A stretch of 23,312 nucleotides of DNA from a virus. Taxonomy: Duplodnaviria > Heunggongvirae > Uroviricota > Caudoviricetes. The translations under genes and the position numbers were made by a program. The notes below the pieces were generated by a model. It did no database searches, was not told the DNA's origin, and was given only the letters and a program-made list of their open reading frames with translations. Location of the stretch: the IMG/VR virus record IMGVR_UViG_2541047726_000007, one strand, 5' to 3'. Position 1 is the stretch's first letter. Each line of letters begins with the position of its first letter. Shown in pieces: positions 3,805 to 6,041 of the stretch.

Positions 3805-4227
3805 ATCAATCTCCATTGGTATCAATGTTTACAGCCTGACAAGACTCTTTGAGCACCCAGTCAATAGCGTCTTTCCATGCCTCTGTTTCGACTGGTGGAT
3901 TTTCACGCTTAACCTGTTCATAGAAGCGCACTGCTTTAACCAGTCCTTCCGGTACTACTGGTGATGGCTGTTTAGCTTCTAAATCAGCAATTCTGTCAAC
4001 CACGGCATCGACAGCATCTGAAAAGCCGAACCAGTTGCTCCACTCCGGCTCATCCCCGGTTGCTGCAAAGTACATATCTGCTAAAGCAGATTCAGCATGG
4101 TCACGCTCGTTAATGAGTTGCTCTTCGCTTTTCTCCAGTTCAGCAATACGCTTACTGAAGTGGTTTACTGAATTTGGCCACCTGAACAGAGGTGATATGC
4201 TCACCTCAGAACAACACAGGTGCCATA

Positions 4228-4530
4228 ATGAAAAAAAGAAATTTCAGCGCAGAGTTTAAACGCGAATCCGCTCAACTGGTCGTTGACCAGAATTACACCG
4301 TGGCAGATGCAGCCAGCGCTATGGATGTCGGCCTTTCCACAATGACGCGATGGGTGAAACAATTACGTGATGAGCGGCAGGGAAAAACACCAAAAGCCTC
4401 CCCTATTACCCCGGAACAAATTGAAATCCGTGAGCTCAGGAAAAAGCTACAACGTATTGAAATGGAAAATGAAATATTAAAAAAGGCTACCGCGCTCTTG
4501 ATGTCAGACTCCCTGAACAGTTCTCGATAA
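4228..4530 (+). CDS. IS911 OrfA (helix-turn-helix transposase subunit)
   Basis: [21 protein letters not shown]... matches remembered IS911 OrfA; 100 aa. Confidence 0.85.
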
Positions 4531-5375
4531 TCGGGAAACTCAGGGCGCGTTATCCTGTGGCCACTCTCTGCCATGTGTTCGGGGTCCATCGCAGCAGCTA
4601 CAAATACTGGAAAAACCGTCCTGAAAAGCCAGACGGCAGACGGGCTGTATTACGCAGCCAGGTACTTGAACTGCATGGCATCAGCCACGGCTCTGCCGGA
4701 GCAAGAAGCATCGCCACAATGGCAACCCAGAGAGGCTACCAGATGGGGCGCTGGCTTGCTGGCAGACTCATGAAAGAGCTGGGGCTGGTCAGCTGTCAGC
4801 AGCCGACTTACCGGTATAAACGTGGTGGTCATGAACATGTTGCTATCCCTAACTACCTTGAACGGCAGTTCGCCGTGACCGAGCCAAATCAGGTGTGGTG
4901 CGGTGATGTGACCTATATCTGGACGGGTAAGCGCTGGGCGTACCTCGCCGTTGTTCTCGACCTGTTCGCAAGAAAACCAGTGGGCTGGGCCATGTCGTTC
5001 TCGCCGGACAGCAGGCTTACCATGAAAGCACTGGAAATGGCATGGGAAACCCGTGGTAAGCCCGTCGGGGTGATGTTCCACAGCGATCAAGGCAGTCATT
5101 ATACGAGCAGGCAGTTCCGGCAGTTACTGTGGAGATACCGGATCAGGCAGAGTATGAGTCGGCGTGGAAACTGCTGGGATAACAGCCCAATGGAGCGCTT
5201 CTTCAGGAGTCTGAAGAACGAATGGGTGCCGGCGACGGGCTATGTAAGCTTCAGCGATGCAGCTCACGCAATAACGGACTATATCGTTGGATATTACAGC
5301 GCACTAAGACCGCACGAATATAATGGTGGGTTACCACCAAACGAATCGGAAAATCGATACTGGAAAAAACTCTAA
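4485..5375 (+). CDS. IS911 OrfB (DDE transposase), made as an OrfAB fusion by -1 frameshift
   Basis: The -1 frame is open from the AAAAAAG heptamer at 4479-4485; the product has IS3-family DDE features. Confidence 0.8.
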
Positions 5376-5819
5376 CTCGGTGGCCAGTTTTTGTTGACCA
5401 CTTCATACCCCCATCCGAGATAACACCTTCGTAATACTCACGCTGCTCGTTGAGTTTTGATTTTGTCTCCTCAAGCTCAACTCTCAGCTTCCCAACAGTA
5501 AGAGCAATATCCTCGTTCTCCTGGTCGCGGCGTTTTATGTATTGCTGGTTTCTTTCCCGTTCATCCAGCAGTGCCAGCACAGTAGCCGGATTGGCTGCGG
5601 CGATGAATTCAGCATTGGCCTGCTGTTCCATTTGGAAATCTTCATCGAAACCGCTTTCTGGATGCGCTCCTTCAATTCTGCAAATGGGAATATATCCAGC
5701 AACTTCACGATGAATTAGCGCATAATCACCATCAAATCGGCTCTCTCCATATTCGAGCGACCACTCACCACACGTTGCTTTTTCTGCCGCTTCACGCAGT
5801 GCCTGATAGTTAATTTCGC

Positions 5820-6041
5820 TCACTTCGAACCTCTCTGTTTACTGATAAGCTCCAGATCCTCCTGGCAACTTGCACAAGTCCGACAACCCTGAACGACCAG
5901 GCGTCTTCGTTCATCTATGGGATCGCCACACTCACAACAATGAGTGGCGGATATAGTCTGGTAGTTCAGACGACGCATTTTTATTGCTGTATTGCGCTGT
6001 AATTCTTCAATTTCTGATGCTGAATCAATGATGTCCGCCAT
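5820..6041 (-). CDS. TraR/DksA-family C4 zinc-finger protein (73 aa)
   Basis: CxxC...CxxC arrangement (CCECGDPIDERRRLVVQGCRTCASC); ATGA overlap with the downstream ea22-like start. Confidence 0.7.
   Translation of the reverse strand: MADIIDSASEIEELQRNTAIKMRRLNYQTISATHCCECGDPIDERRRLVVQGCRTCASCQEDLELISKQRGSK

Follow-up and report, generated by a model that had tools for sequence, protein, structure and literature searches.

An ISEc52 insertion splits an ea22-like gene in a lambda-like prophage of Escherichia coli HVH 68

The stretch of DNA analysed here (the window) is 23,312 nucleotides long and belongs to a lambda-like prophage, similar to PhiR57_1 and ev017, which adjoins icd in E. coli HVH 68. 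The genes on the minus strand followed the order int, xis, several ea genes, ea22, traR-like, orf61, orf63, orf60a, exo, bet, gam, kil and cIII, and around the ea22-like gene this was the order of the lambda exo-xis region. The ea22-like gene itself was present in two parts, on either side of an insertion sequence (Table 1). Judging from the arrangement of the two genes, translation of the gene directly downstream is probably coupled to that of ea22. The counterpart of window segment 3353–3804 (minus strand) appears in RefSeq as a frameshifted, truncated pseudogene in sister prophages, and the annotation of PhiR57_1 gives the label “Ea22” to an 84-aa ORF of this segment, downstream of ea22. 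Two other features of the prophage may be mentioned. The only Rfam match in the window was Lambda_thermo, the cIII mRNA thermoregulator, recovered at full length at positions 8846–8904 on the minus strand (88.5 bits), so this lambda cIII regulatory RNA is conserved here. Between Q and the lysis genes lay a phage-borne porin moron, a 380-aa ORF (18842–19984, minus strand) whose counterpart in both PhiR57_1 and strain C 691-04A bears the annotation of an OmpD/OmpC-type porin.

The inserted element was an intact member of the IS3 family, exactly 1250 bp long as read from the sequence (4156–5405). Its ends were imperfect and of the 5′-TG...CA-3′ type, with TGAAGTGG at the start and CCACTTCA at the finish. 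The terminal arms of 27 nt found by the repeat finder were complementary at 21 of 27 positions and formed the longest inverted repeat of the region, in agreement with the original prediction of a 1250-bp element with recognisable inverted repeats; those of IS911 are given as 36 bp (PMC2909936). The element carried orfA in phase 0 and orfB in phase −1, in overlapping frames joined by the slippery motif A AAA AAG, and the fused OrfAB frame ended at a stop codon at 5373–5375. The RNA fold predicted for positions 4470–4560, 3′ of the slippery site, was somewhat more stable than shuffled sequences (z = −2.44), and no Rfam family matched the frameshift region. Pfam recognised the integrase core rve (PF00665, E = 1.6e-31) and the helix-turn-helix domain (PF01527, E = 1.4e-14), and the catalytic residues D227, D287 and E323 formed a DD(35)E triad. 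The sizes reported for the IS911 proteins are 100 aa for OrfA and 382 aa for OrfAB (PMC2909936). Over its 1250 bp the element was 100% identical to many chromosomal and plasmid copies named “IS3-like element ISEc52” in RefSeq. This PGAP label is found, among the identical copies, on one in E. coli Nissle 1917; the IS that interrupts gnd in Nissle 1917 matched ISEc52 in ISfinder (bioRxiv 10.64898/2026.07.28.741313).

Table 1. Features of the split ea22-like locus and ISEc52 junctions in sister prophages at icd, in window coordinates.
Feature	Position	Strand	Basis or remark
Next gene downstream, ATG one base after the ea22 stop (TGAtATG)	3550..3804	-	sequence, ORFs
ea22-like 3′ part: end of coiled coil, variable C-terminal domain, stop codon	3806..4155	-	ORFs, lambda alignment
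Left copy of 3-bp target-site duplication, TAC	4153..4155	.	sequence; PhiR57_1 empty site
ISEc52 (IS3 family, IS911-like), complete copy	4156..5405	+	100% identity over 1250 bp to annotated copies
IRL, left terminal inverted repeat, 27 nt detected	4156..4182	+	repeat finder
orfA, 100 aa, HTH_Tnp_1	4228..4530	+	translation, Pfam
orfAB fusion transposase, 382 aa after −1 slip, rve	4228..5375	+	translation, Pfam
A AAA AAG programmed −1 frameshift motif, branched RNA structure predicted 3′	4479..4485	+	sequence, fold
IRR, right terminal inverted repeat	5379..5405	+	repeat finder, 78% complementary to IRL
Right copy of 3-bp target-site duplication, TAC	5406..5408	.	sequence; PhiR57_1 empty site
ea22-like 5′ part, codons 1–138 and first base of codon 139	5409..5823	-	ORFs, in-silico excision
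Upstream TraR/DksA-type zinc-finger gene, 4-nt overlap with ea22 GTG start	5820..6041	-	ORFs, Pfam
THO-006 ISEc52	3802-3804		CAT duplication, at ea22 stop
C 691-04A ISEc52	~3829-3832		joined to 16031
C25 ISEc52	3881-3883		ea22 3′ end; opposite orientation; tandem duplication and deletion of 6479-9891
GN02323 ISEc52	3940		joined to 10104
ATCC 25922 ISEc52	6449-6451		CAT, in orf63/DUF1382
FDAARGOS_1293 ISEc52	7346		joined to 12378
THO-006 ISEc52, second	9638/10285		with deletion

The two flanking ORFs turned out to be the halves of one gene, as predicted. When the IS and one TAC were deleted in silico, a continuous minus-strand ORF ran from 5823 to 3806 (765 nt, 254 aa); deletion of the IS alone also preserved the frame and added one Ser. 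Positions 3806–5823 are therefore the exact limits of the split gene. The rejoined protein scored 138.1 bits against the Pfam family Ead_Ea22 (PF13935, cut-off 27), its residues 2–146 covering profile positions 1–139, and it was identical to WP_001289890.1, a 254-aa “ead/Ea22-like family protein” that represents the uninterrupted alleles; the Ea22-like identity put forward earlier was thus borne out. The insertion point fell within the coiled coil (ISDGG|KRIAELE). In the interrupted state, a fusion ORF of 190 aa (5251–5823, minus strand) began at the GTG at 5823, ran into the IS and stopped at 5251, so that its product comprises 138 Ea22-like residues followed by 52 IS-encoded residues. A second ORF (3806–4204, minus strand), with a GTG start inside IRL, covered the 3′ part.

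An isogenic empty site was available in the genome of phage PhiR57_1 (PV340572.1), which is colinear with the window from its first base; a literature search found no publication on this phage. PhiR57_1 positions 1–4155 were 100% identical to window positions 1–4155, and PhiR57_1 positions 4153–20438 corresponded to window positions 5406–21691 with 2 mismatches in 16.3 kb. The two alignments overlapped by exactly three bases, the single TAC of the empty site. The TAC predicted on both flanks of the element is consequently a target duplication and not a chance match. Beside the intact IS3-family element and its 3-bp duplication, the target was otherwise unaltered. The empty site was present at 100% identity in both phages ev017 and PhiR57_1. 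Once the element was excised, the remaining 1542-bp stretch was covered over at least 80% of its length in 82 complete E. coli genomes, and the matches listed, including those of ABU 83972, ATCC 25922 and clone D i2, were all 100% identical. Perfect 3-bp duplications (CAG, CAG, GTT, AAG and TGT) also bordered ISEc52 at five of the seven other distinct sites examined; a duplication of 3 bp, rarely 4 bp, is characteristic of the IS3 family. The only two mismatches to PhiR57_1 over about 20 kb adjoin each other (window 21567–21568, TC against GT); they lie in the Rz/Rz1 region, about 125 bp from the end of the IS1 copy described below.

The 190-aa fusion ORF corresponded to EQP40211.1 of E. coli HVH 68 (4-0888028), a blood isolate, and was an exact singleton among about 15 billion proteins. 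Its gene lies on contig KE699391.1 of the short-read draft assembly GCA_000456965.1; this contig matched window positions 1–11823 at 100% and ran on into icd just past the integrase gene. Since the source is a short-read draft, a repeat copy could in principle have been misplaced during assembly. We regard such an artefact as very improbable, as the element lies in the interior of a contig of 204 kb, and mis-assembly does not produce exact ends together with a 3-bp duplication of the target. Neither IS junction was found as a contiguous match by BLAST in 5426 complete E. coli genomes, and exact-junction scans for the left junction gave no match in species-representative genomes, in IMG/VR or in JGI metagenome contigs. 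The prophages of THO-006 and C25 at first resembled carriers of the same insertion; this was ruled out, as their ISEc52 copies occupy different sites.

The intact ea22-like allele was present in at least 1000 public contigs. That the IS-bearing allele should be the ancestral one, the intact alleles having arisen by precise excision, is extremely improbable: one contig carried the IS against those with the intact allele, which occurred in addition in diverse strains and in free phages, even if precise excision of IS3-family elements appears from the literature to be known, promoted for example by IEE. The singleton junction, the lack of nearby substitutions in the flanks relative to PhiR57_1 and the identity of the IS to many other copies together indicate that the ISEc52 insertion is recent and strain-specific. 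With the empty site of PhiR57_1, the single junction set against so many intact contigs also upheld the view of a simple, fairly recent transposition.

We propose, with a probability of roughly 0.95, that the ea22-like gene of the HVH 68 prophage received a copy of ISEc52 at a TAC within its coiled-coil-coding region, in a recent and strain-specific event. The OrfAB transposase would result from a −1 slip at A AAA AAG, as in IS911 and the IS3 family. By analogy with the IS911 paradigm, from which the figure-eight and circle route is taken at the level of the family, copy-out by OrfAB would yield a circular form of the element, which would then be pasted into the target through staggered cuts 3 bp apart, which would give the TAC duplication. 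The Ea22-like protein would thereby be split after residue 138 into an N-terminal and coiled-coil fusion and an orphan C-terminal domain. Guidance of the insertion by an IR-like target was considered and set aside: the best nearby match reached at most 12 of 16 positions, and similar matches occurred throughout the window. We also looked for a hybrid outward promoter and saw no promoter-like site at either IS junction; for the TTGACC in IRR, inspection by eye revealed no usable −10 in the flank.

Ea22 of phage lambda is tetrameric and pro-lysogenic (PMC10834534, PMC7093339); pro-lysogenic activity is on record for the alleles of lambda and phi24B alone (PMC7093339). In the lambda protein, a long coiled coil separates a short N-terminal part from a C-terminal domain that is inactive by itself (PMC10834534). 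The split Ea22-like protein of HVH 68 is most likely non-functional. Its orphan C-terminal part could be translated only from the GTG inside IRL. Nearly all of the Pfam domain (residues 2–146) is preserved in the N-terminal and coiled-coil fragment, which could retain some activity or have an altered one.

Polarity on the downstream ea genes, which the original prediction considered probable, is probably modest or weak in the light of the surrounding sequence. Relative to the pL transcript, the IS is in antisense orientation. About 1.45 kb of this transcript goes untranslated owing to the premature stop at 5251, and C-over-G-rich stretches at about 5260–5100 and about 4940 are possible Rho entry sites; the next gene, with its ATG one base past the ea22 stop, would lose its translational coupling. 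It is conceivable on these grounds that transcription from pL ends in the IS and that the ea genes beyond it, xis and int are silenced, but we consider such strong polarity unlikely. In lambda, RNA polymerase modified by N passes Rho-dependent as well as intrinsic terminators and alleviates the polarity of IS elements. The N gene was intact upstream (PF25694, E = 1.5e-32), as was a nutL-like site located upstream of N at about 10905–10945 on the minus strand, in which the boxA GCTCTTTAA was followed by a small hairpin, TGGCTGAAAAGCCA, as boxB. The antisense strand of the IS contained no convincing intrinsic terminator and weak candidates only; the five terminator-like sites of the region, all with poor T-tails, did not exceed the number in shuffled sequences (3.1 +/- 1.8). 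Furthermore, pL would be repressed in the lysogen, where it is expected to be silent because cI is intact.

A second insertion sequence bears on the fate of the prophage. A complete IS1 of 768 bp was located at window positions 21692–22459, with both canonical ends and with insA and insB intact on the minus strand. Its flanks (21691 and 22460) joined the end of Rz (PhiR57_1 position 20438) to the middle of the side-tail-fibre gene (PhiR57_1 position 43354), without a 9-bp duplication. Compared to PhiR57_1, 22,915 bp were missing, containing bor, the terminase genes and the head and tail genes. A search for the same IS1 junction in complete E. coli genomes gave no contiguous match. Owing to this IS1-associated loss of 22.9 kb, the prophage is defective and unable to form particles, and the insertion in ea22 is one more step in its decay. 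The ISEc52 insertion was probably selectively neutral, since the IS1-associated deletion had made, or was making, the prophage non-viable.

The neutrality of the insertion has to be weighed against the distribution of ISEc52 in related prophages. At least seven other ISEc52 junctions were observed in icd-site prophages of other E. coli strains, all with 100% identical copies (Table 1). No two of them shared a junction, and the insertions are thus independent. Five junctions, that of the window and at least four others, fell within 354 bp (3802–4155) in the 3′ half of ea22. Several of the sister junctions were associated with deletions removing exo through N. The concentration of five junctions in such a short segment, with more at 6449–6451, 6478 and 7346, raises the possibility that the 3′ half of ea22, or the exo-xis/ral-sieB stretch, is a hotspot for ISEc52, of mechanistic or selective origin, and that the insertion was not neutral. 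We hold this to be rather doubtful. Ascertainment is biased, since the ranking of the matches followed their similarity to a query with the window site at its centre, and few junctions were sampled; the site had neither an IR-like target sequence nor a remarkable GC content, the accessory DNA of prophages is permissive for insertions, and local hopping could yield such clusters. CAT or CAG was seen at 7 of about 14 ISEc52 junctions examined, either in the duplications or in the right flanks. This hints at a 5′-CAK-3′ target preference of ISEc52, possibly related to the clustering. The TAC of the window does not fit this motif. If the clustering proved real, it would inform on how IS elements dismantle prophages; were there a true hotspot, the IS-driven decay of the early-left operon would be recurrent and directional, possibly adaptive, rather than random.

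Taken for what it is, the case is one of ordinary prophage decay, both the IS and the accessory gene that it entered being known. For annotation, the consequence is that the two “hypothetical” ORFs beside the HVH 68 transposase are the halves of one ea22-like gene, and that the HVH 68 prophage should carry the label “defective”. The locus offers a base-exact, recent IS3-family insertion together with its isogenic empty site, and could serve as a strain marker.

The ea22-like gene occupies the same genomic position as lambda ea22, between the exo block and xis. Its product is longer, with 254 aa compared to 182 aa in lambda. Residues 1–149 aligned to lambda residues 1–104 with 55% identity, the N-terminal part showing inserts of 36 and 9 residues relative to lambda Ea22, and the coiled-coil segment LLDERERNQQYIKRRDQENEDIALTVGKLRVELE was nearly identical. 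The C-terminal domain, in contrast, was unrelated, and the last 105 residues had no lambda counterpart.

The ISEc52 copies of Nissle 1917, ATCC 25922 and THO-006 have the same 1250 bp and 3-bp duplications as the copy described here, and differ only in their insertion site. The insertions of ATCC 25922, THO-006 and C25 share with it the IS, the icd prophage lineage and the operon, at different positions. For IS911, the comparison was made against the copy annotated in Shigella phage Sf6. The two elements have in common a length of 1249–1250 bp, an OrfA of 100 aa, an OrfAB of 382 aa, the A6G frameshift and inverted repeats of the 36-bp type ending in TGAAGTGG. They showed 94.9% nucleotide identity (63 mismatches and 1 gap in 1250) and 96.6% amino acid identity in OrfAB, where 13 of 380 residues differed; IRL positions 9–11 read TTT instead of CAC, and a 1-bp indel near the 3′ end altered the C-terminus of OrfAB. 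The name IS911 given in the original prediction therefore holds for the close group (IS911-like), but judged on nucleotide identity ISEc52 is the more precise name, because the element is 100% identical to the copies so named and 94.9% identical to Sf6 IS911. In Sf6, IS911 interrupts ninG and likewise sits within an accessory gene of a lambdoid phage.
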